Source of the DNA: Candidatus Omnitrophota bacterium
GTDB taxonomy: Bacteria > Omnitrophota > Gorgyraeia > Zapsychrales > Fredricksoniimonadaceae
Length of the DNA: 55,473 nucleotides
Direction: 5' to 3'
Assembly: GCA_013286575.1 (NCBI GenBank)
Contig: JABDFL010000004.1
Location: 1 to 55,473, forward strand
Position numbers and translations under genes: made by a program. The notes under the pieces were generated by a model. That model did no database searches, was not told where the DNA came from, and saw only the letters and a program-made list of their open reading frames with translations. Positions 3,519-36,358 of the stretch are shown in pieces. Positions within the stretch are counted from its first letter, which is position 1, and every line of letters begins with the position of its first letter.

Positions 3519-3672
3519 AATTGACCCCGTAAGATTTATTGGATTTGTTGAACAGCGATAATATGGCACAATATTGATTATTTGTCAATATTTATTTGCA
3601 CATATTGCTAATTAGTTTGATTAAATGTCAATATTGGAGAGAAAAAAATTTGATCGTAGAATTTCAATAAGG

Positions 3673-12691: not shown

Positions 12692-14103
12692 GCTCTTCGA
12701 TTCAATTAGTCGTGATCGGCGCCGGTCCCGGTGGTTATGCTGCGGCTTTTTTAGCGGCAGACTTAGGCATGGAAGTGGCCATCGTCGAAAAAGAAATCAA
12801 CCCCGGCGGCGTTTGCCTCTACCGCGGCTGCATCCCTTCCAAAGCGCTTTTGCATACAGCCAAAATCATCAGTGAAGCCAAACATGCCAAAGCCTTTGGC
12901 ATTGAATATAACGACCCTAAAATAGATATTAATAAACTGCGGGACTGGAAAAAATCGGTGGTCAGCAAATTGACCGGCGGTTTGGGCCAATTGGCCCGTG
13001 CGCGTAAAATTAAATATTTTCAGGGAGAAGCCGCTTTCGTCAACTCCAATACCCTGAAAATCAAAAAGACTGACGGTTCCACCGAAGAATTATCATTCCA
13101 GAAAGCTATTTTAGCGACGGGTTCACGCCCGTCAGTCATCCCTAATTTACCTAAATCTCCTGATATCTGGGATTCCACAGGAGCCCTGGAATTAGAGAAT
13201 ATTCCTGGAAATTTATTGGTGGTCGGCGGCGGTTATATCGGCATGGAATTAGGCACCGTCTATCATGAATTGGGCTCCAAGGTTTCGGTCGTTGAAATGA
13301 CCCCGGGACTTTTGCCTGGCGCTGACCGTGATTTGGCAGACATTCTTTACAAGCGTGTTAAAGGCTTGTTTGCCAAGATCATGCTCGAGACCAAGGTCGT
13401 TAAAATGGAGGCTTCCGCGAAAGGCGGCATCACCGTGACCTTTGCTGACAAAGAAGGAAAAGAATTTAAAGAAGATTACAATAAAGTCCTGGTTTCTATA
13501 GGCCGTCGTCCCAATTCAGAAAATCTTGGCCTGGAAAACACCAAGGTCAAGGTCACTCCCCGCGGCTTTGTTGAAGTCAACGATCAACGCCAAACCGCAG
13601 ACCCAAGTATTTATGCCATCGGTGATATCGCCGGTGACCCTATGCTGGCCCATAAAGCCTCACACGAAGGCCGAGTGGCCGTAGAGACAATTGCCGGGCA
13701 CAAGGTGGCTTGGGAGCCGCAGGCCATCCCAGCGGTGGTTTTTACCGACCCTGAAATCGCCTGGTGCGGAATGACTGAAATCGATGCTGCCAAGGCCGGA
13801 CGTGAAGTAACGGTTGTTAAATTCCCGTGGGCCGCCTCAGGCCGTGCCTTGACCCTTGACCGCACTGATGGATTGACCAAACTTCTCATTGATCCTAAAA
13901 CCGAACGTGTTCTGGGTGTGGGAATTGTCGGGGTTGGGGCCGGAGAAATGATCGCTGAAGGGGTGGTGGCCATTGAAATGGGCGCCGTTGCCAAGGATTT
14001 AGCACTTTCCATCCATCCTCACCCGACGCTGTCAGAAACCATCATGGAAGCTGCCGAAAGCTTCTTCGGCCAGAGCACGCATATCTACAAGCCTAAGAAG
14101 TAG
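12688..14103 (+). CDS. lpdA: dihydrolipoyl dehydrogenase E3
   Basis: 471 aa with the FAD motif VVIGAGPGGYAAAF, the redox disulfide GGVCLYRGCIPSK and a C-terminal HPHPTLSE. Its start forms an ATGA overlap with the aceF stop. Confidence 0.95.
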   Translation: MSSSIQLVVIGAGPGGYAAAFLAADLGMEVAIVEKEINPGGVCLYRGCIPSKALLHTAKIISEAKHAKAFGIEYNDPKIDINKLRDWKKSVVSKLTGGLGQLARARKIKYFQGEAAFVNSNTLKIKKTDGSTEELSFQKAILATGSRPSVIPNLPKSPDIWDSTGALELENIPGNLLVVGGGYIGMELGTVYHELGSKVSVVEMTPGLLPGADRDLADILYKRVKGLFAKIMLETKVVKMEASAKGGITVTFADKEGKEFKEDYNKVLVSIGRRPNSENLGLENTKVKVTPRGFVEVNDQRQTADPSIYAIGDIAGDPMLAHKASHEGRVAVETIAGHKVAWEPQAIPAVVFTDPEIAWCGMTEIDAAKAGREVTVVKFPWAASGRALTLDRTDGLTKLLIDPKTERVLGVGIVGVGAGEMIAEGVVAIEMGAVAKDLALSIHPHPTLSETIMEAAESFFGQSTHIYKPKK

Positions 14104-17100
14104 CCCCCAAGAATTTCCTCAAATTTAACATCGGCTCAATACTGATAATCACCGGGACAAAACCGGGGGCGTTTTGCAATTCCTGGAGCTGTGCCGGATC
14201 AATATGAAATTTAATCCCCTGGCCGTTGTTTTGGACAGTTAAAGCTTTGTCAGAAGTCAAATCAATCCCACCTTTATCCTCTACCTTCATCGCTACATCA
14301 GCCGGCTGCAGGTCTTTCTTTGAAAAAATATACATCTGTTTTAGACGCCCGGCTCTTAAATAATTCAAAGGAATGGAAGTATTTATTGTAGTAAACCCTC
14401 TTTCTTCAAATATTCTTGCAGACAGATGGACTTCTGAAAATCCTGTGATTAGCAACTTACCACCATCATTTAGAAAATCATGCACTTCTGATACTAAAGC
14501 CAATGCCTGCTCTCTGGAAGCCACTTCAAAATTAAAGCCCCCACCAATTGAGGTAATAATATCCATTTTAGGAACGTTATCTTCGCTGGAAAAAAGGCTT
14601 TCTCCCTCAAGTAAATTCTTTGGAATAATCTGAATGTACATCGAAAGCCTCTCTTTGAAATCCTTTCGAACAGCATCTAAAACATTTAAATTTTGTTCAT
14701 TGCCTTCTGCCAGCCAATAGTGCATACGGGGCATATCCCTGCCTTGAAAATGTCGCACTAAAGCCTGATGAAATTTCTCTATAAAAGACCCATCACCGGC
14801 AAAAATATCCATCATATTTATGTCTTTTTGTCCTTTTGCTGCCATTTCATCTACCAACGAAACAACTGCACTTATCGCCATTGGATGAATGAACTCATTA
14901 TAAGCTTGCTTGGGTCGGGTATTTCGGACGGACCAGTCATACCAATAAGACAAAGGCATTGAGCGGGGCGCAGATAAGAAAGTTTCATCTTCAAATTCAT
15001 TGCCTTTCAGGAGTTTAAGGATATCGTAAAGCCAAACTTCTTCTTCAAGATTAAGAGGAACATACCTCTGTAAATCGGTGTCATACCATACATCCCGTCT
15101 ATCCCCCCTAAATGCAGTACCTTCCATGGGATTGGATATTATCTCCTTTGATATCCTTACATCCTGTAATACCCGTATATCTGCCTGATCAAGCCCTACA
15201 GGCAGGGCATTAATTCTGATTCTCATATCAGGATATTGTGAACGCACCTTTAATAGCGGAGAAGGAAGTTCTCTATTGAGAGGATTCCGGGCAATACTTT
15301 CATTGATTTGCCTGACTTTTCCAGCAATGGCCTTAACACGGGCCCTATCATCCATTTCCGGATGAGGGTTGAACACTCCATTTACAAATGCCCCTTTAAT
15401 AATTGGACTCATCGCCGCATCCCGGATTGGCTTCTTTTGTACTGCTCCTGAATCAATGACGACCATTTCTCCATTAGGCAACATGCCTAAATTGCCACTG
15501 TCATAATTTCTATAACTAACATCAATTAATACATAGCCCTGTGCTTCTAGTTTAGCATTGAGACGCCGAACGCCCGCATTTGTAATACCAGCCGTAATCA
15601 CTTTAGGTAGTCGTTCAACTGTCCAACCGCCAATTTTCTTAGAAACGGTAGGCTGAAGGACTCCATCAATATCAGGCCTGGGAGTTTGGTCTTTATTAAA
15701 ACGAATGACATCACCTTCCGGTGTTTCAAGCACTAATGCTTGAGTGCCTGCGCCTAATCCTTTAGTTCCCAAAGGAATTTCAGCTAAAAGATCATTCGCA
15801 TACCGGCTCTTTAAAATATCTTGTGCCCGGGGCTCAGGAACTTCCATCGCCTCACCATTTCTTACTACGTTACTTTTTCTTTTTAAACCTGATAATAGAT
15901 TTCTTCCATACTCAATTCTTTGGCCTTGTAAATCTAATTGGATGGCCTGATCGGGAGCGTCTGCTTCCAATCTTCTTATTAAAGATGTGATCCTCTGTCG
16001 TTTTGACAAATCGTCTTTTAAATCTTCGTCTTGTGCTAATGCCTTCTTCAGGAATTGAATTAATGTCACACGCATATTCTTTTGTGTTTTCACAAGCGCC
16101 TGCCGTTTAGAACCAGGATCTTTAAAATGCGCAAACTCCCTTTCAAACTCATTAAGGTCCAAATGTTCACAAAAATTGATTAAACGGGCCAGCTTTTCAA
16201 TATCAAATCGGCCATTGAAATGCCTTAAGAATGTGCCTACGGGGTACTGGTAAAAATAATCCGTGCTGAAAGTTTTATCAAAAGATGTCAGCAAATCAAA
16301 TGCGACAAGATGTGCCTTGCCATTCACGGAGAATATTTCGTAATTATGATGCTTACGAAAATCAATGTCCGTATGTTGCATTAAATAGGAAAAAGCCACT
16401 AACTCTTCAAGTCCATAATGTTCTGAGGAAATGGTTTCGGCATATTCTTCAATAGGCTGTATGACCAGAAAAAGTAAACCCGAAGGACTTTTGAAACCAA
16501 ATTTTTTCTCCAGCGGTACAGCTTCAACGCCTTTTATTAACCTTGTATCCGGAACATAGACACCAATTTTGCGGGCAATACTATAAGATAAATTTTCATT
16601 AGCTGTATTATCTGTATTGTCATACGCTTTAACGTAATACTCTTCTCCTTCCGGGCCATTAAGCCTATACACTCTCCTGTCTTTGCTAATAAGTCTGGAT
16701 TTCTCAAAGAAATCTGAACTTAATTTATCAATATCAAATTTAGGCGCGGCATTCGTCGCCGCATCATTTCTCGCCCGTATTTTCCTTAAGATCACTCCTT
16801 CATGTAACATTGTCAGAAGATCGTATCTATGATCTTCAAAACTCACAGGGCCCTTATTTAAAAAAACCCTTCCTGCGATTCCAGTATTGATCATTACCTT
16901 TATTGTTTCAATGTCTCTGTCATCGGCATAGATAATGATCGACTTACCAGGATGCGATTTCCAATAGATAGCCAATGCTTTTTCCAATCTCTGCAAAGCC
17001 TTTGGCTGCAAATGCAGCATCGGCACTGAAAATGCTTTTGCACCTGCGTATTTTGCAAACACTCTCCTATTAACAGCATTGTTGGACTGACTCATCAGGT

Positions 17101-19273
17101 GCGTGCCGATTCCAAGATTATCCAAATCATCGGAAGGGAAAATCACATTCATCGCCGCATCACCTGCCCTCATCACCGCCACGCCGCCTGAGCTCATGGC
17201 ACGGTCCATACCGGCCATAGCAATTTGATTGTACCGCGCTAAATATTGATATTGGTAAACGTCAATCAGTAAATACTTCGCCCCTTGCCGCCTTGCTTGT
17301 TCTAAACAAATTTTTCCAAGAAAAATTTCATTCCCTATTAATTCATAATAAGACCTCATGTATTCATTGACTCGAACGGGCCAGGCTTGGGCTGCAAGAA
17401 AATCATCAAGCTCATCTTCACGATAATATTCTTTCGTATCAGATATTCTCTCCATGACTCTAAAAAAATAATATAACATCGTTTTCTCATCAGGATTTTC
17501 TTGAAAAAACCTTATTACCTCTTCTCTTAACCCTTCCATCCTGACCCTCAAATCCCTGATACTATCTTGAAAGTCAACGGATCTCTTAGAGCTCGCACTG
17601 ACTATATTTAAATTGACTTTGTCACGAACAAGGGCAAATATAGCAGGACCGTAAAGGGCCCTCATCAGCTTATCAGCAGCTTCCCGGGCATCAATACGGT
17701 TTGTGTAGGCTGCCGAAGCACCACTAAAGATCATTTCTTCTCTTTCTTTAAAGAGACGAATATCGTCCTTGATCTCTTTTTCCTCCATATTTACTGCGAT
17801 AATCAGTTTCCCGGTACTATTTTCTGCCCTCATGTTCTTTAAGAATTCCGGGTAGGAGGAATCGAATTTTAATGTATTAAGCCTATACATAAGTTCTTTG
17901 ACCTCCTCTACATCCGGTTTTTTATCGCTAAAAAACACCTTCTTGATTTTTTCGACCAGATAAGCGGGAACACCGGGCCAACGATATTCAGCAGTACCTT
18001 CGGCTGCTTTTACAGGAGTCGGCAGGAATGCCGTAGTGGCTATTGTAGCCGCTGCTAATCCTAAGGCTTCCCGCCTTGTCAACACAGTGTCCAATTGCAT
18101 TGTTAAACCGAGTAGGCCTGTTTTATTGTTCGGAGGAGTCGCGGTTGCTGTGATGGCCGGATCCAATAAGGTCACGCCGCCGGAGAAATATTGCCTCGGG
18201 ACGAGCTGCTGTGTTATGGGGTCTTGTTCTTCTTTAATGTAGTTATAAGCGCCTTTTTTGAAGGCTTGGAGGTAGCGTTGGTAAATGACTTGGGGGGTAA
18301 AACTTTTATACCCTATTCCTACCACCTTACTTTTGTTTTCGTATACTTGTGCCAGGATGCTTGCTTTGATTTTCTTTTTGTACCAGGTGGCGAGGATGAG
18401 AGAATTATAGACCTGCCGTAGTTGGGCGAAATTTTTGTCCTGGTTGACTTCTTTGGTGAGTTCGGGGATGACTACTTCACGGACGACCTGGGAGCCGAGG
18501 GAACTGATACTGTTAAAAGATTGCTTCGCTGCGCTCGCAATGACACTGCTTTGCAATGACGAAGGAATTGGGCCTTTTGACACATTCTTGCTAAACGCTA
18601 AATAATCCTGCTCAAGCATGACTTTTAATTTGCTTTCGATGATATAGGCGGTGCCGGCTTGGGCATTTTCGTAGACTACGGCTTTTTCGGGGACTATCCA
18701 GACTTTGTTAAAAGTGTTGACCGGAATATTTGTTGTGCCGAATTTCTTTTGGGCTTCCTCATAAATCCGTTTCCAGAATTTCCTGCCTATTTCTCCTTCA
18801 GGATAAATTAAGCTGGCGGTGATTTGTTTGAGCATATAATCTTCAGCCAACAGGTCACGGCCCATTTCGGTTAGGCCGAAGCTTTGCGGAATGATGCGAT
18901 TTTTTTCGTAGGGGCTTAAGTTTACCCAGAGATCTTTTTCAGGGATGGTGAGGCTGGCGAGGAAGTATTTTATTAGTTTGGTGGATTCTTCTTTGATAAA
19001 AGATTGCTTCGTCGCTTCGGCTCCTCGCAATGACACCGAGGACAAATCACCTTTGTCTAAAATAAAATCGAAACGGAAAGGATTGTCGGGATGGATTTTG
19101 AGGCCTTTTAGTATGGGAGGATTGAATTCCGGGCTTAGGGGGACCATTATCCCTGGTTTTGGCAATAGGAATTCACCTGCCTGGGCCGTTGGTATAGGGC
19201 CAAACGTATTAGCTAAAAAAGCAATAATTAGCCCAAGAGCTATATTAGTTCTTAAATTTAGATACTTTCTCAT
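14093..19273 (-). CDS. giant exoprotein A (1726 aa): signal peptide, conserved N-module, unknown regions, two kinase-like domains, SAM methyltransferase, conserved C-module
   Basis: An uninterrupted 5.2-kb ORF starting at ATG 19271-19273. The signal peptide is IALGLIIAFLANTFGPIPTAQA/GEF. The N- and C-modules are shared with 24032..29623 and 32693..36358. The MTase motif I is MDIFAGDGSF. Confidence 0.9.
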   Translation of the reverse strand: MRKYLNLRTNIALGLIIAFLANTFGPIPTAQAGEFLLPKPGIMVPLSPEFNPPILKGLKIHPDNPFRFDFILDKGDLSSVSLRGAEATKQSFIKEESTKLIKYFLASLTIPEKDLWVNLSPYEKNRIIPQSFGLTEMGRDLLAEDYMLKQITASLIYPEGEIGRKFWKRIYEEAQKKFGTTNIPVNTFNKVWIVPEKAVVYENAQAGTAYIIESKLKVMLEQDYLAFSKNVSKGPIPSSLQSSVIASAAKQSFNSISSLGSQVVREVVIPELTKEVNQDKNFAQLRQVYNSLILATWYKKKIKASILAQVYENKSKVVGIGYKSFTPQVIYQRYLQAFKKGAYNYIKEEQDPITQQLVPRQYFSGGVTLLDPAITATATPPNNKTGLLGLTMQLDTVLTRREALGLAAATIATTAFLPTPVKAAEGTAEYRWPGVPAYLVEKIKKVFFSDKKPDVEEVKELMYRLNTLKFDSSYPEFLKNMRAENSTGKLIIAVNMEEKEIKDDIRLFKEREEMIFSGASAAYTNRIDAREAADKLMRALYGPAIFALVRDKVNLNIVSASSKRSVDFQDSIRDLRVRMEGLREEVIRFFQENPDEKTMLYYFFRVMERISDTKEYYREDELDDFLAAQAWPVRVNEYMRSYYELIGNEIFLGKICLEQARRQGAKYLLIDVYQYQYLARYNQIAMAGMDRAMSSGGVAVMRAGDAAMNVIFPSDDLDNLGIGTHLMSQSNNAVNRRVFAKYAGAKAFSVPMLHLQPKALQRLEKALAIYWKSHPGKSIIIYADDRDIETIKVMINTGIAGRVFLNKGPVSFEDHRYDLLTMLHEGVILRKIRARNDAATNAAPKFDIDKLSSDFFEKSRLISKDRRVYRLNGPEGEEYYVKAYDNTDNTANENLSYSIARKIGVYVPDTRLIKGVEAVPLEKKFGFKSPSGLLFLVIQPIEEYAETISSEHYGLEELVAFSYLMQHTDIDFRKHHNYEIFSVNGKAHLVAFDLLTSFDKTFSTDYFYQYPVGTFLRHFNGRFDIEKLARLINFCEHLDLNEFEREFAHFKDPGSKRQALVKTQKNMRVTLIQFLKKALAQDEDLKDDLSKRQRITSLIRRLEADAPDQAIQLDLQGQRIEYGRNLLSGLKRKSNVVRNGEAMEVPEPRAQDILKSRYANDLLAEIPLGTKGLGAGTQALVLETPEGDVIRFNKDQTPRPDIDGVLQPTVSKKIGGWTVERLPKVITAGITNAGVRRLNAKLEAQGYVLIDVSYRNYDSGNLGMLPNGEMVVIDSGAVQKKPIRDAAMSPIIKGAFVNGVFNPHPEMDDRARVKAIAGKVRQINESIARNPLNRELPSPLLKVRSQYPDMRIRINALPVGLDQADIRVLQDVRISKEIISNPMEGTAFRGDRRDVWYDTDLQRYVPLNLEEEVWLYDILKLLKGNEFEDETFLSAPRSMPLSYWYDWSVRNTRPKQAYNEFIHPMAISAVVSLVDEMAAKGQKDINMMDIFAGDGSFIEKFHQALVRHFQGRDMPRMHYWLAEGNEQNLNVLDAVRKDFKERLSMYIQIIPKNLLEGESLFSSEDNVPKMDIITSIGGGFNFEVASREQALALVSEVHDFLNDGGKLLITGFSEVHLSARIFEERGFTTINTSIPLNYLRAGRLKQMYIFSKKDLQPADVAMKVEDKGGIDLTSDKALTVQNNGQGIKFHIDPAQLQELQNAPGFVPVIISIEPMLNLRKFLGATS
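18516..18565. repeat. family-1 mini-repeat copy inside giant gene A (codons ~238-253)
   Basis: aaaagattgcttcgctgcgctcgcaatgacactgctttgcaatgacgaagg has the same AGATTGC...CTCGCAATGACAC termini as the other copies. Confidence 0.65.
18999..19036. repeat. family-1 mini-repeat copy inside giant gene A (codons ~79-92)
   Basis: aaagattgcttcgtcgcttcggctcctcgcaatgacac is nearly identical to the aceF right arm. Confidence 0.7.
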
Positions 19274-19289
19274 ATAGACAAAGTATGCC

Positions 19290-20777
19290 CTATTTTCTCA
19301 TATTTTGCCACTTTTGGGGGGCAGGAGACGCGAGGATGTATAGGGACGTGCCAAAGGGGTATTGGTGCTTTAGGACGTGGCTGGCTTCCCATTGCAGGAG
19401 CTTGAATAGCCATTCATTGATCTTAGCTGAAGGCTTATCAAAGGTATCACACTGGGGTTTGTCATTTTTAGCAAATACTTTTCGAACCAATCGTATAATA
19501 GCCACGGGAAAAAATATCAACACAAATAAATAGCCGCTGCGCTTTATTTCAAAACCACTGTCTTTGACTAAATCCTCAAAATCCCGCCTGCTATAGCGGC
19601 GCATATGGGAAAGGGCCTCATCATGAGGGCTCCATAGAAAACGGAACGCGGGAACAGCCAGGACCAGCATCCCATCGTCTTTAAGGACACGTTTAAATTC
19701 AGCCATGGCCGCCACCGGGTCTGCCACATGCTCAAGCACATCCAGGGAAATAATCACATCGAAAGCTTGGGAACGGAAACCCAGGTTATGCAAATTCCCC
19801 TGGACCAGGCGCTGAACACCGTTGGTGCGGCAGAATTCCAGGGCCTCAAGCACCACATCATAGCCCACATAAAACACCCTTGAACGCAAAAATTCCATGT
19901 TATGCCCTGTGCCGCAACCGGCATCCAGGACAAATTTATTATCAAAGTTAAATCCGGACAATATTTCTTTAAAAAAATGGCCTTTGGCCTTAAACCACCA
20001 ATGTTCTTTTTCCTGGTTATACATATTGGTCAGTTCTTTCACCGACATATGCTCGGCATGGGTATTGATAGCCACGTAGTGCCAGTTTTTAATCTGGATA
20101 ATGTTCCAAAACATCCGTATGGAGTCCTTCACGAGATCGACCTTGCTGCCATCCACATGCGACCAGTTGACAGCCACTTCCTTGATGCGTAAATCCATTT
20201 TTTGGGCCAGGTACAATACCTCTAAATCAAAGCCATACCCCTCCAGATAAAGGCGGCCGAAAAGGTCCGGAATCACTGACGCGCGGAACATTTTAAAACC
20301 GCATTGGGTGTCTTTGATGCCCTTAATAAGCATCCGAGAAACAAGAAAATTGAAAATGGTCCCCATCCATTTCCGGTAAGACAAGGTCTTGACCTGGGAT
20401 TTTCCGTCGGTCAAGACCCTGGAACCTATGACGATATCATAACCCTTTTCAAAGCAATTTAAATGGCGCTCGATCTCTTCCGGTCCGGTGGAGCCGTCAG
20501 CGTCCAAAAACAATACGATCTCACCCCGGGCCGCGAAGAAACCCTGTTTGACGGCATAACCCTTGCCGTGGTTACGGCCGAGGCTCATCACTTTCAAGGC
20601 AGGGAATTCTTTTTGAAAAGATAAAGCCACGTCAGCTGTTTTGTCTTTACTCCCGTCATCAACCACCATAATTTCGTAAGAATGCGCTGACCGGCGGCAA
20701 AAACCAATAACAGTCTTTAAAAAACGGGGTAAGCGTTCTTGTTCATCTTTGGATGGGATTATAATTGAGATATTCAC
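19290..20777 (-). CDS. GT2 glycosyltransferase (polyprenyl/dolichyl-phosphate sugar transferase-like) fused to a class I SAM methyltransferase
   Basis: 495 aa. The N-terminal part has IIIPSKDEQERL...VVDDGSKDKT...FLDADGS (GT-A DxD). The C-terminal part has VLDAGCGTGHNMEFL, FDVIISLDVLEHV and a terminal TM helix. The gene ends 16 nt before the start of giant gene A. Confidence 0.8.
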   Translation of the reverse strand: MNISIIIPSKDEQERLPRFLKTVIGFCRRSAHSYEIMVVDDGSKDKTADVALSFQKEFPALKVMSLGRNHGKGYAVKQGFFAARGEIVLFLDADGSTGPEEIERHLNCFEKGYDIVIGSRVLTDGKSQVKTLSYRKWMGTIFNFLVSRMLIKGIKDTQCGFKMFRASVIPDLFGRLYLEGYGFDLEVLYLAQKMDLRIKEVAVNWSHVDGSKVDLVKDSIRMFWNIIQIKNWHYVAINTHAEHMSVKELTNMYNQEKEHWWFKAKGHFFKEILSGFNFDNKFVLDAGCGTGHNMEFLRSRVFYVGYDVVLEALEFCRTNGVQRLVQGNLHNLGFRSQAFDVIISLDVLEHVADPVAAMAEFKRVLKDDGMLVLAVPAFRFLWSPHDEALSHMRRYSRRDFEDLVKDSGFEIKRSGYLFVLIFFPVAIIRLVRKVFAKNDKPQCDTFDKPSAKINEWLFKLLQWEASHVLKHQYPFGTSLYILASPAPQKWQNMRK

Positions 20778-24031: not shown

Positions 24032-27000
24032 TTATTTAAGTGTAGTACTTTGGGTCAAACCAAGAAATTGGGAAAGACTCTTAAGTGGCTGGATATTAAT
24101 AATCACCGGCACAAAACCTGGAGCATTTTGAAGTTGCTGAAGCATGGCTGGGTCTAAATGAAATCTAATTTCACTTCCACTGTTTTGTGTCTGTAAATTC
24201 ATATTGGCAGGGGTTAGGTCGATACCCCCTTTAGCAGTCATGGCTCCATCTGTTAGCTCTTTCCAAGCATCGTGACTTGTTACCTCAATCCTCGGAAATT
24301 TAACCATTGCATCTATTCGATTGGCCAGTTGATCAATAGGTTCGGTATCTACCTTATTATCTAAAAAAGGCTTAATAACGTAAGAAGAAGCACCACCAAA
24401 AATATCGCTTTTATCATCGACAAGCAGTCGATATTTAAACAAACCAATCGGTTTATACTCATTGTACTTCTCACTATACTTTTTGAATAAACTTTGATAA
24501 TACTCCTTTCTAACGCTATTTGATACTCCTGGATTCCAGGCTGATAGTCCATTATCTCCTGTAATAATCAATTCAAATAAACCATACATTTCACTGTTGG
24601 ATAATAAATATTTTCTGACAGCTTTTTTGGGTGAACGGGTCCACAAAACAAGCCGATATCCCATTGTCTTCAATTTATTCAATTCATCAATGATGCCGGG
24701 TCTTATAATTGATACGGAACCAAGAAACGTCCTTCTCTTATCGAGAATTGTATGATCCATATCAAAAACGACGGTAGGCCTCTCTCTAGACATAGTCCGT
24801 TCATTCTTAATAAACTGTTCTTCATAAACACTCCCATCGATGAAGCCATTTTGATCAATGACATTTTTCTTGCCTTGGGTTGAACTATCCGTGCCGGCCT
24901 CTTCATTAATTGAATCTACTTTAAGAAGTTCTAAATCACGGCCATGTATCAAGACTACCGTGGAAACACTCGGGTACCTTTCAAAATAATAACCATCAAA
25001 ATGATGCATCATAAGATATACAGGCAAAAGATCTTCATGAGCTCCGCCAAAATTCAACTGAACCCACTTTTCATATTCTTTTTCACCAACGCCGTTAAGA
25101 TGAAAGAGTCTTTGCTGTCTTTGAATCCCCAAGGTTAAGACGTAGCTACCTGAATTCCTCATTGTTTTTATGGTAGCGTAATTAAAGGCTTTACGGTAAG
25201 AAGTTGTCAAAAACACACCCATGTGAGTATAAATATTGTTTTTGGCGCCAAATATTGAAGGCATTAATTCGCCCCTATCATTTATACGTTCAAGCTCTTC
25301 TCCGTCAACGCCTCTATAAAGTACTTCTGTGGCCTCATGAAATTCTTTTAAATCAAATCCAAAGAGTTTTTTTATAAAACGTGATGCCTTCCCTATAAGA
25401 AAAAAATACCATCTAACAGTGGTCTCTGAAAAGTCAGTTAAATAAAGATCAATAAAAGTATTGGCTCTTTGTATTTTTCTTGAAAACCAATTTATAAAAT
25501 AACTGGTGATTTTTTCTTGAATGTTTCCGTCACGATTCTCAGCAACACCCCAATCCTCTATGAATATCTTGGAAAAATACTCCGCCAACTGAGAATTCTC
25601 TAGCCTGATTCCCAATTCCTGATTACCATAATACGCCCTGGGTGTCAAATCTGAACTCCCTGTAATTACTGTATTATCAGCTATAAGCAACTTACGATGA
25701 TCAAAAAGACCTTTGGGGTTGCTCCATCTAACAGGCACACTGGAACTCTGTAATTTATCGTAGGCTGGCAAACTTCTAACGTAGGGAATATATAATGGAA
25801 ACAACTGAAATTTTTTCTCTACCCCATTTAGCAAAACCCTAATATCTATTTTGGGATCATTCCTGAGTTTCATCTTAAGAACTTGGACGATAAGATCATC
25901 GTTCAAATGCCATTGTGAAATATATATCCTCTTTTTTGCTTTAAGAATTTCCTGGATATAAGCAAAACGTGTATTATCTTCAATAGAACGTTCTCGCAAT
26001 ATTTGTCCCCAAGGATTCTTGGTTGCTCTAAAAGCATATCTTTGACCATGTGCCCAATACCAATTCTCCCAGAATATGTCCTCAAATTCTTTCAGGCCAT
26101 GAATAGAATGAACGATTAATCCTGCTGTTCTTCCTCTAAAGAAGCTTAAATTATCACAACCTATATAAACATATTGTCCATCGATTATTATCAATTTTTT
26201 ATGATCATCTGGAGAAGGTGCTGCCATCACAAATTGACGGTTTCTTTCTGGCCGATAAAAAATAATCTGCAGATTATTGATTTCTTCTTTTTGTATCGAT
26301 TGAATTAATTCTGATTGTTTCTTAGTGAGTCTTTTGACATTCTTACCTATAATGACTTTAACCTCTATTCCTTCTATAGCCTTTTGTTTTAATAAATCCC
26401 ATACGGAATTATCATGGAATGAATACATATCTATGAGTATGGACCTACGCGCGTCGGTCACCAATTGTCTAAGTATGCGCCCCCCATCAAAAGTCTCACC
26501 TATGGGCAATATGTGCACACCTTGATGCTCAATCCACCTAAGCCGATATTCTTCTTGTGCAGGGCTTTTATCATTAGACACCATTGCTTCATCAGGTTTT
26601 AAGTTCTGAACTGAGATGGCTGAAGTTTCATCAAAAAAATAAAATCGTGAACGGGAATTCATATTAGCTCTTGCTTCTTCCCTACCAAGTATTCTGCCGT
26701 CCGTTGAATCATAAATATTCCCAGAAAAATGATCTAACAAAGCATTGGCCTCAAAAAACATCAATCCGTCTGAGATGTCTTGTCCCTTTTCGTGTAAAAT
26801 CTGGTTTAATGGTTTTTGGGATATTAATTCTTTGATGAGTTCTTTATTCTCTTCAGTTTTAGCCTGCCCTTTAATTACGGCCCCCAACATACTTTCCGCC
26901 ATTATTAATATCAACCGTTGGACCCTTCTTCCCAAATCTGATTGGGTAATAAGGCCTTCTCTTAACAATAAAGCCCATTCTTCAACAACATTATTCGCAA

Positions 27001-29623
27001 ATATACTATCCAAAATAGTTTTGTTTATATCGTTTAAAACCGCTGTCTCAAAATGTGCTTTCTTTGTGGAAGAATAGATAAATACTGCATGACGAACCCA
27101 TTTATTTACCAACGGTGGTCTCATTAGCCTTTGAACAATTCCTATCTCTCTAAAAAGTGTTTCACTTGTTTCATTAATCCTCACTTCCAGTTCCGTATCT
27201 TTTTTAGGCACAGATTCCGATAACGTCACAATGATCACTTCCTTGGCTCCAGCATCCAATAATTTTCTCCGGATTTCCGTGGAAGTAAAACCCGTCCCCC
27301 AATGATCGTCCACAAGCAGTATCGTTTTCCCTCTTATTTGATCTAAATCTTTAATTTCATAAGCATCAATCACATTTAAAGCCTTGTTTAACAGACCTTT
27401 AACTAACTTCTGTTCTCTTCTCCGATCTATTTTTACAACAGATGAATTACCAACTGAAATATGGGATTTTTCTGATAAAACCATTAACAAAGGATCTAAT
27501 TGATTTTGCTGACCGTTTAATCGCGGGACACCAATAATTAAGTCTGGTTTAAGATTTTGAACACTCAAAGCTCGAATCACTTTTTCTGAAAATTTATCAG
27601 CCAATTGAAGCATTGCTTCAACATTCTTTTTAGTTTCAAAATATTGTATTGAAAAATTATCATAAATAAAGTTTGGATGGCTATGTGGAAACAAAACATT
27701 GAAGGTAATTACTGGGTGTTTGTAAGAAGTCAGTGACAAATTACTTTCAGCGGTGTTCAAATTCGCTATGCCATATTTCAACAATTCCGTAACCCAATAA
27801 TATCCAACGTCAGCTGAAACACTTTTCCCGGTAAACATAAAAGAAGGGCTTTCTTCATAACTGCTTTTGGCAGCCGACGAAAGATAATTAAAAACACCTG
27901 TTTTGACCAAGTCATCCTGTGTCTCAAAATATATTCTCTGGATCAACGTTCGGATAACTTCTAATACTTCTTCATGTTTTTGCGTTTCTACTTCATATTG
28001 TTTTAAAAGACTTGCTAAGGTATCAAGCTTTGATTCCACCGGCTCCGTTCCTGGCATCACACTATTTAAAATGGCTTGATACCTTTGCGCTGTCTCACTT
28101 AAACCTCTTATACGTAACCTAAAAACTTCAAAAGCAACTTTTAAAGCCAAATATTCTCTATTAAAAAGACCCTGCCCACGATTTTGAGCGATCTTGTAAG
28201 CTTCTTTGGAAATATAATCAATACGTCCCTTACTAACAATCCAATAAAATGAATCACTTGCCGGATTTAAAACAAACTCAGCTGGGACAACCCCTCTCCC
28301 TCTATCTGTAGCGATATAATCTGTGAAAAAAATGGGCTGATAATAAATTTTATCTCCCGATTTTTTAATTCTTATTAAACCAAACTCTTTACTAATAACT
28401 AACTGTCCATTTTGTAATTGACTATATAAAACAATACCATCTCTATACTCCAATGATGCACTCATCGCTGGGTCAATTCTGACATTAACTATTTCACTAT
28501 CATTACCGGAAGGCATGTTCCATTGATGCAAAATTATCATGGCCGAATCAATTTTCAAGATTGTCATATTAAGCAATACCCCACCCGAAAAATATTTCCT
28601 TGGAATAGTCTCTTGAGTCACAGGGTCTTGTTCTTCTTTAATATAGTTATAAACACCTTTTTTAAACGCCTGTAAATACCGTTGATAAATTTTTTGCGTT
28701 TCTTGCGGGTCATCAATATTCACTCCAGCCACCTTCTTCTTATCGGCATACACCTGCTCTAGAATACAGTCCTTAATTTTATTTTTGTACCAAGTGGCTA
28801 AGATGAGACTGTTATAAATTTGGCGTAATTGAGAGAAATTTTTGTTCTCGTTAACTTCTTTTGTTAATTCGGGGATGACGATTTCGCGGACGATTTGGGA
28901 GCCTAAAGCACTCGTGTTCTGGATTCCCGCTTTCGCAGGAATGACATTGTGAGAGAGTGCTAGGTAATCTTGCTCAAGCATTACCTTCAATTTACTTTCA
29001 ACAACATACGCCGTACCAGCCTTAGCATTCTCATATACCACAGCTTTTTCTGGCACAATCCAAACTTTATTAAATGTGTTGACGGGGATATTCGTTGTAC
29101 CAAATCTTTTCGTAACTTCTTCGTAAATACGTTTCCAAAATTTCTTACCAATCTCCCCTTCAGGATAGATTAGGCTGGCCGTTACCTGCTTGAGCATATA
29201 ATCTTCGGCCAGTAAATCCCTGCCCATCTCAGTCTGGCCAAATGATTCTGGGACTATGCGGTTTTTTTCGTAAGGACTTAGATTGACCCAGAGGTCTTTT
29301 TCAGGAATGGTTAAAGAGGCAAGGAAATACTTAATCAACCTACTAGATTCATCTTTGAGAGCGTCATTAGATAATTGGCTGTCACCTTTATCTAAGATAA
29401 AATCAAAACGAAATGGATTGTCAGGATGGACTTTGATTCCTTTAAGGACTGGCGGATTAAATACAGGACTCAAATACACCATTACCCCAGGCGCAGGCAG
29501 ACGAAATTCATCTGCCTTGACTTGAGGTATAGGACCAATTGTATTAGCAAAAAATACCAATAAAATGATAAAAGATTGCCCCGGCCTAAAAAACAGGCCT
29601 CGCAATGACATATAACTCCGCAT
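24032..29623 (-). CDS. giant exoprotein B (1863 aa): signal peptide, conserved N-module, ComF-like PRTase, double-HKD phospholipase D, ART-like, HAD/FCP1-like phosphatase, conserved C-module
   Basis: An uninterrupted 5.6-kb ORF with ATG at 29621-29623 and a second ATG at 29609-29611. Motifs are listed in the findings. The N- and C-modules are shared with the other two giant genes. Confidence 0.9.
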   Translation of the reverse strand: MRSYMSLRGLFFRPGQSFIILLVFFANTIGPIPQVKADEFRLPAPGVMVYLSPVFNPPVLKGIKVHPDNPFRFDFILDKGDSQLSNDALKDESSRLIKYFLASLTIPEKDLWVNLSPYEKNRIVPESFGQTEMGRDLLAEDYMLKQVTASLIYPEGEIGKKFWKRIYEEVTKRFGTTNIPVNTFNKVWIVPEKAVVYENAKAGTAYVVESKLKVMLEQDYLALSHNVIPAKAGIQNTSALGSQIVREIVIPELTKEVNENKNFSQLRQIYNSLILATWYKNKIKDCILEQVYADKKKVAGVNIDDPQETQKIYQRYLQAFKKGVYNYIKEEQDPVTQETIPRKYFSGGVLLNMTILKIDSAMIILHQWNMPSGNDSEIVNVRIDPAMSASLEYRDGIVLYSQLQNGQLVISKEFGLIRIKKSGDKIYYQPIFFTDYIATDRGRGVVPAEFVLNPASDSFYWIVSKGRIDYISKEAYKIAQNRGQGLFNREYLALKVAFEVFRLRIRGLSETAQRYQAILNSVMPGTEPVESKLDTLASLLKQYEVETQKHEEVLEVIRTLIQRIYFETQDDLVKTGVFNYLSSAAKSSYEESPSFMFTGKSVSADVGYYWVTELLKYGIANLNTAESNLSLTSYKHPVITFNVLFPHSHPNFIYDNFSIQYFETKKNVEAMLQLADKFSEKVIRALSVQNLKPDLIIGVPRLNGQQNQLDPLLMVLSEKSHISVGNSSVVKIDRRREQKLVKGLLNKALNVIDAYEIKDLDQIRGKTILLVDDHWGTGFTSTEIRRKLLDAGAKEVIIVTLSESVPKKDTELEVRINETSETLFREIGIVQRLMRPPLVNKWVRHAVFIYSSTKKAHFETAVLNDINKTILDSIFANNVVEEWALLLREGLITQSDLGRRVQRLILIMAESMLGAVIKGQAKTEENKELIKELISQKPLNQILHEKGQDISDGLMFFEANALLDHFSGNIYDSTDGRILGREEARANMNSRSRFYFFDETSAISVQNLKPDEAMVSNDKSPAQEEYRLRWIEHQGVHILPIGETFDGGRILRQLVTDARRSILIDMYSFHDNSVWDLLKQKAIEGIEVKVIIGKNVKRLTKKQSELIQSIQKEEINNLQIIFYRPERNRQFVMAAPSPDDHKKLIIIDGQYVYIGCDNLSFFRGRTAGLIVHSIHGLKEFEDIFWENWYWAHGQRYAFRATKNPWGQILRERSIEDNTRFAYIQEILKAKKRIYISQWHLNDDLIVQVLKMKLRNDPKIDIRVLLNGVEKKFQLFPLYIPYVRSLPAYDKLQSSSVPVRWSNPKGLFDHRKLLIADNTVITGSSDLTPRAYYGNQELGIRLENSQLAEYFSKIFIEDWGVAENRDGNIQEKITSYFINWFSRKIQRANTFIDLYLTDFSETTVRWYFFLIGKASRFIKKLFGFDLKEFHEATEVLYRGVDGEELERINDRGELMPSIFGAKNNIYTHMGVFLTTSYRKAFNYATIKTMRNSGSYVLTLGIQRQQRLFHLNGVGEKEYEKWVQLNFGGAHEDLLPVYLMMHHFDGYYFERYPSVSTVVLIHGRDLELLKVDSINEEAGTDSSTQGKKNVIDQNGFIDGSVYEEQFIKNERTMSRERPTVVFDMDHTILDKRRTFLGSVSIIRPGIIDELNKLKTMGYRLVLWTRSPKKAVRKYLLSNSEMYGLFELIITGDNGLSAWNPGVSNSVRKEYYQSLFKKYSEKYNEYKPIGLFKYRLLVDDKSDIFGGASSYVIKPFLDNKVDTEPIDQLANRIDAMVKFPRIEVTSHDAWKELTDGAMTAKGGIDLTPANMNLQTQNSGSEIRFHLDPAMLQQLQNAPGFVPVIINIQPLKSLSQFLGLTQSTTLK
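28921..28947. repeat. family-2 hairpin mini-repeat inside giant gene B (codons 227-235)
   Basis: ggattcccgctttcgcaggaatgacat has an 8-bp stem ATTCCCGC/GCAGGAAT (one mismatch) with a 4-nt loop. Confidence 0.7.
29571..29610. repeat. family-1-like variant at the 5' end of giant gene B
   Basis: aaagattgcc-ccggcctaaaaaacaggcc-tcgcaatgaca has conserved termini. Its interior is replaced by a GGCCT/AGGCC hairpin. Confidence 0.45.
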
Positions 29624-31532: not shown

Positions 31533-31542
31533 GCATGAGATT

Positions 31543-32692: not shown

Positions 32693-35600
32693 TTATTGGA
32701 TAAAATTCAGAAGATCGGCAATGGGGGTAATGCCGACAATAACTCCACGCAGGCCCCGTGAGTTTAAAACCATGTCTTCGAGGGCCTTATCGCTGACAAC
32801 ATCCGTCATGACGCGACCTTGACGGTCCATAGGAATGTTGCTGAGCTTGATACCGCCGGGAATATTCATGGCTGTATCAGAAACCCCCACTACTAAAGAT
32901 TGACCGGTCTTTTCAACTTTCTCGAGCTCTTGGACAAAATCAAACAGCTTGTCCATTGCTCTCTTAGTTAGCTTTATTTTGCCTCGTGTCTCAGGCTCCT
33001 GTTTAAGCGCATTAAGTTCTTCTCTCAAACTTTCTTTCAAGGGAGCTAATACGGGACTTTCACCATAAAGATAATTAAGATGAGATAATATGTCTGCACT
33101 CCCCGGACGATTGTGAAATTCCAAGGGGGTGATGTCACCGAATGCCTCAAGGAAAGGACTTAACCCATTGCCATTCTTATATACTTCTTCACCCTTATTA
33201 TCCTTCCAAACAAATGGCCCTCCAATTTCATTTAGCAAATACAATGCTTCATCACGGTCAATTGATAGTGGCGGGGTTTCCCCAGCTTTAATCTCTATTG
33301 GTGGGGGTTCATGTTCCCAATTTTCTTCTTTATCCCACTGTTCTTCAAAATGGGCACGTCTTTTTTCAAACTCTGCAATGGGATTGGCACTGCCTCCATT
33401 TAAAACGTCGAAAGCAATACCATATTCATTAATCATACGATAAATGGATACCTTTTGATGAGCGGCCCGAAAAGCCTCTTCCATCACTTGATATCGTTGT
33501 CCATTTCCAGGATTTCGATACATGTCAACGAATTCTTGCATATATGCGGCAAACTGCCGCCGACCTTCTTCATAAAATCGGGTCAGTGCCCATTGTTCCT
33601 TGTGTTGAAACGCCCATATAATTCTGCGAAATTCAGCACTATGTTCACCATTGCGTTTCGCATGTTCAAAATCAAAAGGATTTACTAACCATCCACTAAC
33701 TCCGGGCTTGATCCATTCCAATGGGCCTCCAGTCGCCGTAGCAATAGATGGGTGGCCATTTAAAGCCGCTCGTTCATCACTTGTACCAGATGCCTCCCGG
33801 GTCAGCCATGGCATGACCAACCAGCAATCAGTTGCTGATGTTGCAAATTTCATGAATTCTGTTCCTGTTGTTCTTTCAATGATTACAAATTTTCCTTTAA
33901 TATCAGGTTCCAGGGACAGCTGTGTTAATGCACTCACCCACTCAGGGGCTACACCATCAAGAGCTTCGCCAGCCAATAAAAGGTTTGCTCCGAGCCCCTT
34001 CCTTGGCCCTAATGGCGAGTCGTACACTTTATTTGGGTCTCCCACAATCCACCTGACCATAGGAATGAACAGGGCCTGAGATTTATATTCTACCATCCTT
34101 CGAACAGCGCCAAATAATGGCCGCTTGTGAATGTCAGCAAAACCCTCCAATCCCATACCTCTCAAATATTCATTTAGCTTGTATTTCTGGTTTGATCCTA
34201 TATCAAACAGATCCTTCCCGGTAATATTTGCTATCCCTTTTCTTGAAATGAGTCTGTTAAGATCATCAGAGCGCCACAGGGACGGCAAAGATCCATTTTG
34301 GATACCGGTTGTTTTGTCCGCAAAACCGGGCAAAACTGCTTCACGGGTAACATCAGCATGCTCCAACGAAACACCATTGATCATATGCGCATGATGGCCC
34401 ATAGCTCCAGCTGCATTCACTTGCCCGTTATATATAATATCGTCTCGCACAAGATCAGCACCTACCAAGTCTTTTAGCTTACCAACGTCCTTCCAAACAG
34501 GTAATGCCGCTGCTTCAGGTGTATGAGTTGTCATTAAAAACTTGGTTTCAGCAAAAATGCTCCGTTCACCTTTTTGTCTTTTTGCATCAATATCGTTCAA
34601 TACGGCCGTCATGACAAAAATTAATTGTGGCTCGCTTAATCGTAATATGCGAGGAGCAATGCCTAAAGCATAACAAAGTTCAACATAAGCCTTACCCATA
34701 AAACCATATTGTATGACTTGTTCGTCGCCTCCCGGGTACAACCTTTTAAACAGGTTGCGTTGTTTGATACCAAATACAGGAGTCCCATTAGCATCGACCC
34801 AGTAGATATAAGCACGTTCTTTTTTCCCTTTGAAATCCACATCAATGGAAAGCGCATGGTTATTTCCTTTTCCATCTTGAACAATAACAGGATGGACCCC
34901 TTCTTGGTGGTCCCAATCAACTTCGACACCATTCTTGTCATAGCTATAAAGCGGCATAGCGCCTGCGGCATTCCAATTTGGCAATAACTCGCTATAGGCT
35001 TGGTAGGTTTCTCCCGCCAGAAAACCAAGCCCTCCTTTGCCTAACGCTAATTGAGCCGTCCCCTTAATAGCAGATAAGAAAGCTTCAAGAGTTACATCAG
35101 TGACAACCCCGCTCCCTTCTGGATTTTGTAAATTGGCAATAACCCCCTCAGGGCCGTTTATAATCCGCAATCGTTTCCCGTGATAAAGCGCCTTGGGTGG
35201 CTCACTTGAAGTAACGCTTCGAATATCAACCCGCATATCATATATTTGTTCATCTCCTAAGACATCTAAACTCGTAACCATTGCGGGTTCACGTAGAATT
35301 TGTTGATCTACAAAACCGCCGGAGAAATATTTCCTGGGAACAGGCTGCTGGCCTGACCGGGTCATCTCTTCTTTAATATAGCTGAAGACACCCTTCTTAT
35401 AGGCAGACAGGTATTGATGGTAGATACGGTCTTTATTCTTTGGATCGCTGAGATCAATACCCGCGACTTTATTACGCCCGGAATAAACTTTATTGAGGAC
35501 CGATTTTTTAAAAACGTCCTGATACCATTGGGCCAGGATGAGGGCGTACAATATTTGCCTTAACGGCGCAAAATTCTTGCCTTCATTGACTTCATTCTCT

Positions 35601-36358
35601 ATGGCAGGGAGAACAACTTCACGTAAGACCTGCTTGGATAGATTCCTGACAGTATTATTTTTCTGCGCATTGATGTTCTCGCCCAATTTGTTTAGGGCCA
35701 AATAATCCTCTTCAAGCATGACCTTAAGATGCGCATTGACAATGTAAACCGTATTGCCCTTTTCAAATACCGACGCTTTCTCAGGAAGGATCCATACCTT
35801 ATTAAATACATTGACCGGGACCTGGGTAACGCCGAATTTCCGGTAAGCTTGCGTATACACTTTGTTCCAAAATGTTTTACCTAAATTGCTCTCCGGATAA
35901 ATAAGGGAAGCCGTGATTTGTTTGAGCATGTAGTCTTCTGCCAAAAGGTCACGGCCAAGTTCTGTTTTGATCAAGGTATCCGGGATAATGTGGTTTTTCT
36001 CGACCGGGGAAAGATTGACCCAAAGATCCTTTTCAGGTGTCGCCAAAGAAGCCAGGAAATAATTAACCATGCGCTGGGACACTTTCTTAAAATTGTCAGC
36101 GCTTAATCTTTCATCGCCGGGATCTACGATAAAATCAAACATGAAGGGATTTTCAGGATGGACTTTCAGGCCCTTGATCAAAACAGGCTTAAAAGCCGGA
36201 CTTAAACTTACTCTGGTTCCCGGTTTCGGTAAGAAAAATGACAAGCCGGATATATCAACAGATTGGGCATGGGCAGGCGGCAGGAATATTGATGTTCCCA
36301 AAAAACTGATTGAGACCCAAAGGGCCAAAAAGCGTCGGAAAATGATGATCGGTCTCAC
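32693..36358 (-). CDS. giant exoprotein C (1221 aa): signal peptide, conserved N-module, alpha-glucan phosphorylase-like domain, helical region, divergent C-module
   Basis: An uninterrupted 3.7-kb ORF with the signal peptide FLALWVSISFLGTSIFLPPAHA/QS. GT35-like strings include GGLGFLAGE, THTPEAA, INGVSLEH, GIQNGS and REASGTSDERAALNG. Confidence 0.9.
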   Translation of the reverse strand: MRPIIIFRRFLALWVSISFLGTSIFLPPAHAQSVDISGLSFFLPKPGTRVSLSPAFKPVLIKGLKVHPENPFMFDFIVDPGDERLSADNFKKVSQRMVNYFLASLATPEKDLWVNLSPVEKNHIIPDTLIKTELGRDLLAEDYMLKQITASLIYPESNLGKTFWNKVYTQAYRKFGVTQVPVNVFNKVWILPEKASVFEKGNTVYIVNAHLKVMLEEDYLALNKLGENINAQKNNTVRNLSKQVLREVVLPAIENEVNEGKNFAPLRQILYALILAQWYQDVFKKSVLNKVYSGRNKVAGIDLSDPKNKDRIYHQYLSAYKKGVFSYIKEEMTRSGQQPVPRKYFSGGFVDQQILREPAMVTSLDVLGDEQIYDMRVDIRSVTSSEPPKALYHGKRLRIINGPEGVIANLQNPEGSGVVTDVTLEAFLSAIKGTAQLALGKGGLGFLAGETYQAYSELLPNWNAAGAMPLYSYDKNGVEVDWDHQEGVHPVIVQDGKGNNHALSIDVDFKGKKERAYIYWVDANGTPVFGIKQRNLFKRLYPGGDEQVIQYGFMGKAYVELCYALGIAPRILRLSEPQLIFVMTAVLNDIDAKRQKGERSIFAETKFLMTTHTPEAAALPVWKDVGKLKDLVGADLVRDDIIYNGQVNAAGAMGHHAHMINGVSLEHADVTREAVLPGFADKTTGIQNGSLPSLWRSDDLNRLISRKGIANITGKDLFDIGSNQKYKLNEYLRGMGLEGFADIHKRPLFGAVRRMVEYKSQALFIPMVRWIVGDPNKVYDSPLGPRKGLGANLLLAGEALDGVAPEWVSALTQLSLEPDIKGKFVIIERTTGTEFMKFATSATDCWLVMPWLTREASGTSDERAALNGHPSIATATGGPLEWIKPGVSGWLVNPFDFEHAKRNGEHSAEFRRIIWAFQHKEQWALTRFYEEGRRQFAAYMQEFVDMYRNPGNGQRYQVMEEAFRAAHQKVSIYRMINEYGIAFDVLNGGSANPIAEFEKRRAHFEEQWDKEENWEHEPPPIEIKAGETPPLSIDRDEALYLLNEIGGPFVWKDNKGEEVYKNGNGLSPFLEAFGDITPLEFHNRPGSADILSHLNYLYGESPVLAPLKESLREELNALKQEPETRGKIKLTKRAMDKLFDFVQELEKVEKTGQSLVVGVSDTAMNIPGGIKLSNIPMDRQGRVMTDVVSDKALEDMVLNSRGLRGVIVGITPIADLLNFIQ

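Follow-up and report, generated by a model that had tools for sequence, protein, structure and literature searches.

A Tat-like signal peptide inside a modular Omnitrophota protein lies at a module joint and may be a relic of gene capture

A stretch of 55,473 nucleotides from Candidatus Omnitrophota bacterium (contig JABDFL010000004.1 of assembly GCA_013286575.1, positions 1 to 55,473; "the window" hereafter) contains an open reading frame (ORF) of 1726 codons, ORF A, in which a sequence resembling the N-terminus of a twin-arginine translocation (Tat) substrate begins only at residue 392, behind a Sec-type signal peptide and a conserved module. How did a second export signal come to lie so deep within one protein, and does it still act as a signal? 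The explanation that we favor, and that we consider probable though well short of certain, is that residues 392-424 are the native Tat-type signal peptide of a captured exported-protein gene and that this peptide is now redundant. In our view the peptide exposes one seam in the construction of a modular protein family of the Omnitrophota that is so far undescribed. The layout of ORF A, in which the linker was delimited by comparison with that of a paralogue, B, is as follows.

14093..19273, minus strand: ORF A, 1726 amino acids, member of the Omnitrophota family with N-module, cargo and C-module
19178..19273, minus strand: N-terminal Sec-type signal peptide, residues 1-32, ending ...TAQA/GE, kept family-wide
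18176..19177, minus strand: N-module, residues 33-366, ending in YFSGG
18101..18175, minus strand: linker, residues 367-391; its first joint motif is degenerate (DPAI) and its end reads GLT-M
18002..18100, minus strand: Tat-like signal peptide, residues 392-424
17207..18001, minus strand: cargo module 1, residues 425-689, orphan
17150..17206, minus strand: joint motifs DRAM (residues 690-693) and DAAM (residues 705-708)
15422..17149, minus strand: cargo modules 2 and 3, residues 709-1284
14300..15421, minus strand: DAAM joint (residues 1285-1288) and cargo module 4 (residues 1289-1658)
14096..14299, minus strand: DVAM joint (residues 1659-1662) and C-module, KGGIDL...DPAQLQELQNAPGFVPVIISIEP

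The frame of ORF A is open without interruption over all 1726 codons. Within it, residues 392-424 read MQLDTVLTRREALGLAAATIATTAFLPTPVKAA and are followed by EG, the first residue (M392) being encoded by the ATG at 18098-18100. An n-region of eight residues (392-399) leads into T-R-R-E-A-L, whose two arginines are residues 400-401 (nucleotides 18071-18076); the h-region that follows consists of 19 uncharged residues (403-421, nucleotides 18011-18067) rich in Ala, Thr and Gly, and the c-region (KAA) holds a lysine and the small-x-small site V-K-A/A. A long n-region, T-R-R-x-x-L, a weak h-region of Ala, Thr and Gly, a basic c-region and a small-x-small site are features shared with the Tat signals modeled by TIGR01409 and PF10518, whereas its place, 391 residues into the chain and preceded by a folded module that itself follows a Sec signal peptide, is unlike theirs. 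Relative to the consensus S/T-R-R-x-F-L-K, the peptide has Glu at RR+1, Ala at RR+2 (usually Phe) and Gly at RR+4 (usually Lys). A previous sequence-only reading of this DNA had described a complete twin-arginine signal peptide inside a giant protein. The Met, T-R-R-x-x-L, uncharged h-region and cleavage-type site are indeed present at residues 392-424, although "complete" slightly overstates the match given the Glu, Ala and Gly departures, and "giant" applies in a relative sense only, as A is near the family median of 1213 amino acids. In an AlphaFold model of A residues 1-440 (62 sequences), 260 residues were predicted with a local distance difference test score (pLDDT) of at least 70 and the N-module core with a score above 90; the N-terminal signal peptide was modeled as a helix at residues 7-24, and residues 393-440 (pLDDT 33-45) were not predicted to pack onto the N-module.

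ORF A follows the plan of a family in which a Sec signal peptide and an N-module ending in YFSGG are succeeded by a linker, variable cargo modules and a C-module. Two further members are encoded in the window.

24032..29623, minus strand: paralogue B, 1863 amino acids, with the same N- and C-modules as A and a cargo of phosphoribosyltransferase (PRTase), two PLD domains and HAD
32693..36358, minus strand: paralogue C, 1221 amino acids, with a diverged N-module, then DTAM followed by a diverged C-module

The N-module of A is 69% identical to that of B and 49% identical to that of C, and 53-76% identical to the 120 database proteins listed of 1417 matches in all. Where named, the sources of these 1417 matches are Candidatus Omnitrophica/Omnitrophota, save one labeled Minisyncoccia. 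A scan using one genome per species confirmed at least 560 genomic matches to the N-module; the best 80 loci all come from metagenome-assembled genomes (MAGs) of Omnitrophota or MAGs labeled "uncultured Planctomycetales", except for one labeled "bacterium", and some MAGs carry at least 10 copies. From these 80 loci we obtained 86 family ORFs, 64 of them complete, with the median length already given and a maximum of 3069 amino acids. The C-module, which ends 38 of the 64 complete ORFs, is a region of approximately 60 residues common to A and B at 63% identity (KGGIDL...DPA[MQ]L..LQNAPGFVPVII.I.P, also written GGIDL...GFVPVII). Between the two ends, database members differ in length and carry scattered Pfam domains after the N-module, including methyltransferase, HAD, protein kinase, HD, HEAT and sugar transferase domains. 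Neither the N-module nor the C-module matched any Pfam or NCBIfam model, and a Foldseek comparison of the N-module model with the PDB gave no fold match (best E = 0.2, TM-score < 0.2).

Family cargo is punctuated by a short motif, D-x-A-M, which occurs past YFSGG, recurs where one cargo segment meets the next and is found once more immediately ahead of the C-module, with 95 copies in 17,924 cargo residues compared with 1 copy in 32,228 N-module residues (an approximately 170-fold enrichment). In ORF A the motif is found at residues 690, 705, 1285 and 1659 (nucleotides 17195-17206, 17150-17161, 15410-15421 and 14288-14299), giving approximately four cargo modules, of which 2 and 3 are divided only tentatively, near residue 838, where the sequence is DAAT rather than D-x-A-M; in B it is found at residues 359, 384, 1011, 1792 and 1824. 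Since neither the wobble positions of its codons nor the flanking nucleotides carry information, D-x-A-M appears to be selected as a peptide, and on the same evidence a DNA recombination site and a Shine-Dalgarno remnant were ruled out. We regard the motif as a candidate processing site or structural cap. Side-by-side inspection of the linkers of A (TGLLGLTM) and B (VNVRIDPAM) places M392 at the position of the Met in B's second linker D-x-A-M, and therefore the Tat-like peptide of A begins exactly at the joint between N-module and cargo.

Signal peptides recur at this joint in other family members. A loose Tat-like pattern was applied, requiring a basic pair in motif-like surroundings and then at least 13 uncharged residues. 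In the non-family ORFs of the family loci (304,554 residues) it had five internal matches, the majority of them in membrane proteins, and none that was convincing at an N-terminus; from this background approximately 0.02 matches would be expected per A-sized cargo. Among 154 non-redundant family proteins (93,799 cargo residues) the same pattern matched seven times, and five of the seven matches (A, P0038, L063, L070 and L077) fall 33-50 residues past YFSGG; the number expected within a 30-residue joint window of the 154 proteins is 0.08 (P ~2e-8). Tat character was judged with two curated hidden Markov models, TIGR01409 (cutoff 16.7 bits) and Pfam PF10518 TAT_signal (gathering score 22.7), and the Tat-like peptides of members other than A scored as follows.

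L063: DHAM...GWSRRKFIRTAALAAGALGLLPVT; TIGR01409 25.5 bits, above cutoff
P0038: NQAM-KRVVSRRKFLKTASLGGAAALPAIPG; TIGR01409 23.8 bits, above cutoff
L077: DRAM-SSDMGRRQFLSKLGIAIAGVSAGV; TIGR01409 17.9 bits, above cutoff
L047: module at a later position; TIGR01409 14.1 bits
L070: matched by the loose Tat-like pattern alone; no TIGR01409 match

P0038 also scored 18.6 bits with Pfam TAT_signal, under the cutoff of that model, and the Sec-type control peptides, A's own N-terminal signal peptide among them, gave no TIGR01409 match. The internal Tat-like peptide of A is confirmed as real and not a product of chance. Other classes of signal are placed in the same way. Sec-type signal peptides lie in register with the joint Met (DSAM-IRSLR-NIMAGTLLILGVSLAVSPQHAIA, DEAM-LSKRK-IGTLLALTISLTVLMPSGAAYA and DNAM-TVK-GAAALLAALVAISVASV), and at a later joint, at residue 903 of L054 (JBGAJA010000002.1), there is an internal lipoprotein-type signal with the lipobox LSGC (DPAM-KSSKTIK-...ITSSLSGC). 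Overall, signal-peptide-like N-termini, AxA-type Sec peptides and one lipobox among them, follow 18 of 244 D-x-A-M Mets compared with 51 of 1996 other Mets (Fisher P = 2.6e-4), many of these other Mets belonging to variant joints (S-P-A-M, T-A-A-M). With the exception of a tandem pair in L042, the signal-peptide-bearing cargos have no homologues among the 154 family proteins.

The origin of one of these peptides can be traced. The Tat-led module of L063, located behind D-H-A-M, is a GH26 glycoside hydrolase. A search found 123 homologues for it (E <= 0.001), and of the 120 that were listed almost all are stand-alone proteins of approximately 300-600 amino acids. Among the best 54 homologues (293-614 amino acids), 47 have an N-terminal Sec or lipoprotein signal peptide and the remaining seven look truncated. 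In the closest homologues the signal peptide stops just before the mature start, FEPPDG(K/N)(T/I)LL.IGQ, and the internal peptide of L063 stops there too (...ARSLFEPPDNQTLLFIGQ). Because the signal peptides of L063 and its homologues end at the equivalent place, the internal peptide is the native N-terminal signal of the enzyme, fused in frame, and the comparison demonstrates that a whole precursor was captured in this member. None of the 54 homologues inspected is Tat-type, their signal class thus differing from that of L063.

For the cargo of A no such relatives were found: neither a word-indexed search of 5.8 billion proteins, nor an exhaustive phmmer search of 1.84 billion cluster representatives, nor a tblastn search of the 80 related loci returned a homologue of residues 392-846. 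When all of A and its sub-segments were scanned, no significant Pfam or NCBIfam domain was detected in the cargo, the only matches in A being sub-threshold (HipA_2 at E = 0.0055, DUF6277 and the PsbQ transit region); similarity to HipA-like kinases, at residues ~865-1010, is weak. Cargo module 1 is predicted, with low confidence, to be mainly helical, and a single-sequence AlphaFold2 model of residues 392-704 (pLDDT 40) was unusable. The cargo does stand out in composition, its guanine-plus-cytosine content at third codon positions (GC3) being 0.32-0.43 (14300-18001) compared with 0.56 +/- 0.05 in 16 housekeeping genes of the window; the N- and C-modules of A are intermediate (GC3 0.49), and the cargo of B has a GC content of 0.36. 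The composition of A's cargo fits foreign cargo or cargo of fast turnover or fast evolution. The sequence-only reading had offered, as one explanation, fusion of the N-module to a formerly autonomous Tat-exported protein, which would be direct evidence of cassette capture. At the level of the family this proposal is supported by the joint position, the recurrent signals and the GH26 module of L063, but for A itself it holds by analogy: the searches of residues 392-846 brought up neither the stand-alone homologues starting with A's Tat peptide that the reading envisaged nor homologues in which the segment is a conserved internal helix.

According to the explanation we favor, a gene for a Tat-type exported protein would have been joined by its start codon, in frame, to the end of the carrier linker, and D-x-A-M would mark the joints, its Met doubling as the first residue of each cargo. 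Export of the entire A chain is expected to be driven by its N-terminal Sec signal peptide, which would leave the internal peptide redundant; with an h-region presumably too short and too weakly hydrophobic to stall Sec translocation, the internal peptide could be tolerated and persist. Cargo module 1 of A was thus presumably once a stand-alone Tat substrate, and the peptide is presumably now functionally silent.

Several observations weigh against this explanation. The motif is atypical, in that T-R-R-E-A-L-G agrees with the consensus at four of seven positions. The TIGR01409 score of the A peptide is borderline (17.0 bits with a 48-residue query and 14.9 bits with a 67-residue query), and Pfam TAT_signal gave no match to it even at E <= 10. 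As regards classification, the peptide is not N-terminal, as a Tat signal should be, but begins at residue 392 of an uninterrupted ORF; because both its location and the Pfam model fail, we have not filed it as a functional Tat signal. No TatA or TatC was found in the window and ~1.1 Mb of related loci, which sample approximately 1% of each genome, by tblastn with approximate queries (TatC and TatA of E. coli and a TatAd-like protein of B. subtilis) together with a regular expression for the TatA motif, and the same thin sample of ~1.1 Mb contained no stand-alone Tat substrate. As the cargo of A lacks homologues, its stand-alone ancestor is postulated by analogy within the family. Finally, relics should decay, yet many internal signals are intact, and L042 (JADFXH010000006.1) keeps two. 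Residues 356-997 of this member hold two HEAT-like cargo modules in tandem, paralogues that share 40% identity; a D-x-A-M precedes each module, each has a Sec-type signal peptide of its own, and the two peptide sequences cannot be aligned with one another. This hints at selection or at two independent captures, and the latter would explain L042 equally well.

A less likely but still credible explanation is that the peptide works. After a cut between the Ala and Met of D-x-A-M, or after initiation at M392, the cargo would be exported in folded form via Tat, the Tat system being that of the producer or, if the carrier delivers its cargo, that of a recipient or prey cell. Such use would be in keeping with a cargo-enriched joint motif that is selected as a peptide and always leaves Met first in the next module, with three kinds of signal peptide in exact register with that Met, and with the retention of signals on both diverged tandem modules of L042. 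Proteolytic processing is also suspected, with no cleavage sites known, for other giant Omnitrophota proteins (bioRxiv 10.1101/2023.11.21.568195). Nevertheless, protease, cleavage and internal start are all putative, and in A the motif that would be cut is degenerate, GLTM rather than D-x-A-M. Initiation at M392 gains nothing from the surrounding nucleotides. There is no Shine-Dalgarno sequence before M392, which says little because use of this element is weak genome-wide (most genes of the window, A's own start included, also lack it); no minus-strand sigma-70-like promoter was detected in 17800-19500, and RNA structure around the ATG of M392 is not unusual (z = 0.73). Of 144 linker D-x-A sequences, 88 continue with Met, and where Leu takes the place of the joint Met its codon is TTA or CTN in 13 of 16 cases rather than the start codon TTG. 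This codon use speaks for retention of the joint Met as an amino acid, and we rejected its selection as a start codon. The suggestion that the ATG at 18098-18100 also initiates a second, Tat-routed product finds no support in the sequence, neither an internal ribosome-binding site nor a promoter having been found near M392. The N-terminal Sec signal, moreover, should remove an uncut chain from the cytoplasm, away from Tat, and signal peptidase would encounter a signal placed after a translocated domain in the wrong orientation. The explanation would also require Tat machinery, which was not found in the loci sampled.

Rather unlikely, in our view, is that the segment is a hydrophobic linker helix or weak anchor that is Tat-like by chance and not by descent, and that might tether the periplasmic N-module to cytoplasmic cargo using ATP or S-adenosylmethionine. 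The borderline TIGR01409 score and the silent Pfam model are compatible with this, the peptide is the second most hydrophobic 19-residue window of A (Kyte-Doolittle 1.44), and the hint of a HipA-like kinase would make the downstream cargo cytoplasmic in type. However, the apparent insertion energy summed over 19 residues of the A peptide is approximately +5 kcal/mol on a rough scale; by the same measure A's N-terminal signal peptide comes to +4.5 and a genuine transmembrane helix, that in the sugar-transferase cargo of P0089, to -3. This roughly suggests a segment that is signal-peptide-like rather than membrane-helix-like, and two of the last four residues of the hydrophobic segment are Pro. 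By the positive-inside rule, an N-terminal Arg-Arg is the wrong polarity for a stop-transfer anchor following an exported domain. A membrane tether is also not the design of the family, since no hydrophobic joint segment is present in B, C and ~85% of members (the joint of B has no signal-like peptide), and chance resemblance is difficult to reconcile with five Tat-like peptides at the joint where 0.08 were expected. One member does have such a stretch without cargo behind it: residues 1818-1855 of L040 (JABDGZ010000018.1), between DLAM and the GGIDL of the C-module, are signal-peptide-like and hydrophobic, and may be what is left of a cargo since deleted or may act as a genuine anchor.

We give little credence to a polyprotein reading, in which processing between the Ala and Met of D-x-A-M would free cargos with a native-like Met and their signals would re-target them in whichever cell they find themselves. 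If it were true, the Sec, Tat and Lol pathways of a prey cell could send hydrolases from prey cytoplasm to prey envelope on behalf of host-dependent or predatory Omnitrophota, and internal signals in use would constitute a new bacterial routing of effector modules. That A is an artefact, adjacent N-module-only and Tat-substrate genes having been merged by a sequencing or assembly error, is highly improbable, for although cargo-less family proteins of ~345-360 amino acids exist in the database, the frame is continuous through the 25-codon linker, the same in-frame architecture is seen in 64 complete ORFs from many independent assemblies, and the family C-module closes A in the same frame. One of the cargo-less proteins, P0003, stops shortly past YFSGG; as to whether N-module-only genes were precursors of read-through fusions, the two short complete ORFs in our sample were both uninformative.

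The family has likenesses to several known systems. Polymorphic toxins have a conserved trafficking head, a joint motif (VENN before CdiA-CT, PxxxxDPxGL in Rhs proteins) and hypervariable enzymatic C-termini, and such toxin and effector systems have reportedly been the subject of work by Zhang, Aravind and colleagues. The Omnitrophota proteins resemble them in their conserved N-terminal part, short joint motif, variable enzymatic modules, many paralogues per genome and AT-shifted cargo, but differ in that the cargo is sandwiched between N- and C-modules, with several modules strung together and some bearing their own signal peptides. Comparisons with Pfam, NCBIfam and the PDB linked the family to known trafficking domains neither by sequence nor by fold, and no immunity gene was identified for A, no defense-system library having been searched. 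In the multifunctional autoprocessing repeats-in-toxin (MARTX) proteins, conserved ends flank effector modules that are freed by processing at inter-effector Leu-X sites. N- and C-terminal conserved regions likewise flank the variable module string of the Omnitrophota family, but here the joint is D-x-A-M, processing is hypothetical, and neither RTX repeats, a cysteine protease domain nor any link to MARTX in sequence or fold was detected. The polyproteins of flaviviruses and hepatitis C virus also carry signal peptides inside one long product at module boundaries; their internal signals follow a cytosolic or stop-transfer segment and so can re-initiate translocation, whereas the signal of A follows a domain that should already be exported. 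Closest in taxonomy are the giant proteins of the same phylum (West-Roberts et al., 10.1101/2023.11.21.568195; 10.64898/2026.06.07.730766), which are described as secreted or membrane-associated, with many unrelated enzyme domains and suspected processing into smaller products, but also as 10,000-147,000 amino acids long, with many transmembrane helices and C39/S8 peptidase domains, unlike the family reported here. By term search, neither the family nor internal signal peptides are described in the two papers, one of which suppressed internal signal-peptide calls as an artefact of chunking. Tat is not mentioned in the Omnitrophota literature covered by term search, including these papers, and literature searches for Tat in Omnitrophota or for the N-module/D-x-A-M/C-module family returned nothing relevant.

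Taken alone, an internal Tat-like peptide would be a curiosity; in context, it marks how a large unannotated family assembles its members, in which whole genes with start codons and export signals would be strung between N- and C-modules with a joint motif at each seam. In a phylum that is uncultured and probably host-dependent, such a peptide offers a concrete record of gene capture that can be dated, and the joints supply candidate module boundaries or cleavage points of the kind that published work on Omnitrophota giant proteins is missing. The family also calls for caution in annotation, since signal-peptide or transmembrane calls inside such proteins may reflect inherited baggage and not topology.

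The three paralogues of the window sit within 22 kb among housekeeping genes, with an N-module of ~335 and a C-module of ~60 amino acids. The 3' neighbor of A is a convergent dihydrolipoyl dehydrogenase gene (12688-14103, plus strand), and the 3' ends of the two genes overlap by 11 nucleotides (14093-14103). Neighbors in the window are housekeeping genes, including those for pyruvate dehydrogenase E1/E2/E3, a two-component pair, Maf, LptF/G, alanine racemase and TsaE, together with a secretin gene. Given these housekeeping neighbors, LptF/G and the secretin, the locus is chromosomal and the host diderm. LptF/G, at 30444-32655, confirm a diderm envelope, and the secretin gene, at 1743-3569 (minus strand) and of the type II/III secretion or pilus type, lies 10 kb from A. 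The ComF-like PRTase cargo of B is 28% identical over 94 amino acids (E = 2.6e-5) to the product of an adjacent ComF-like gene (29732-30442, plus strand), and a further PRTase gene (23008-23565, minus strand) flanks the other side of B; this cargo may have arisen by local duplication into the cargo region. Lastly, the "uncultured Planctomycetales" labels among the best N-module loci (binchicken assemblies; L003, L004, L006, L007 and others) probably reflect a problem of taxonomic labeling.

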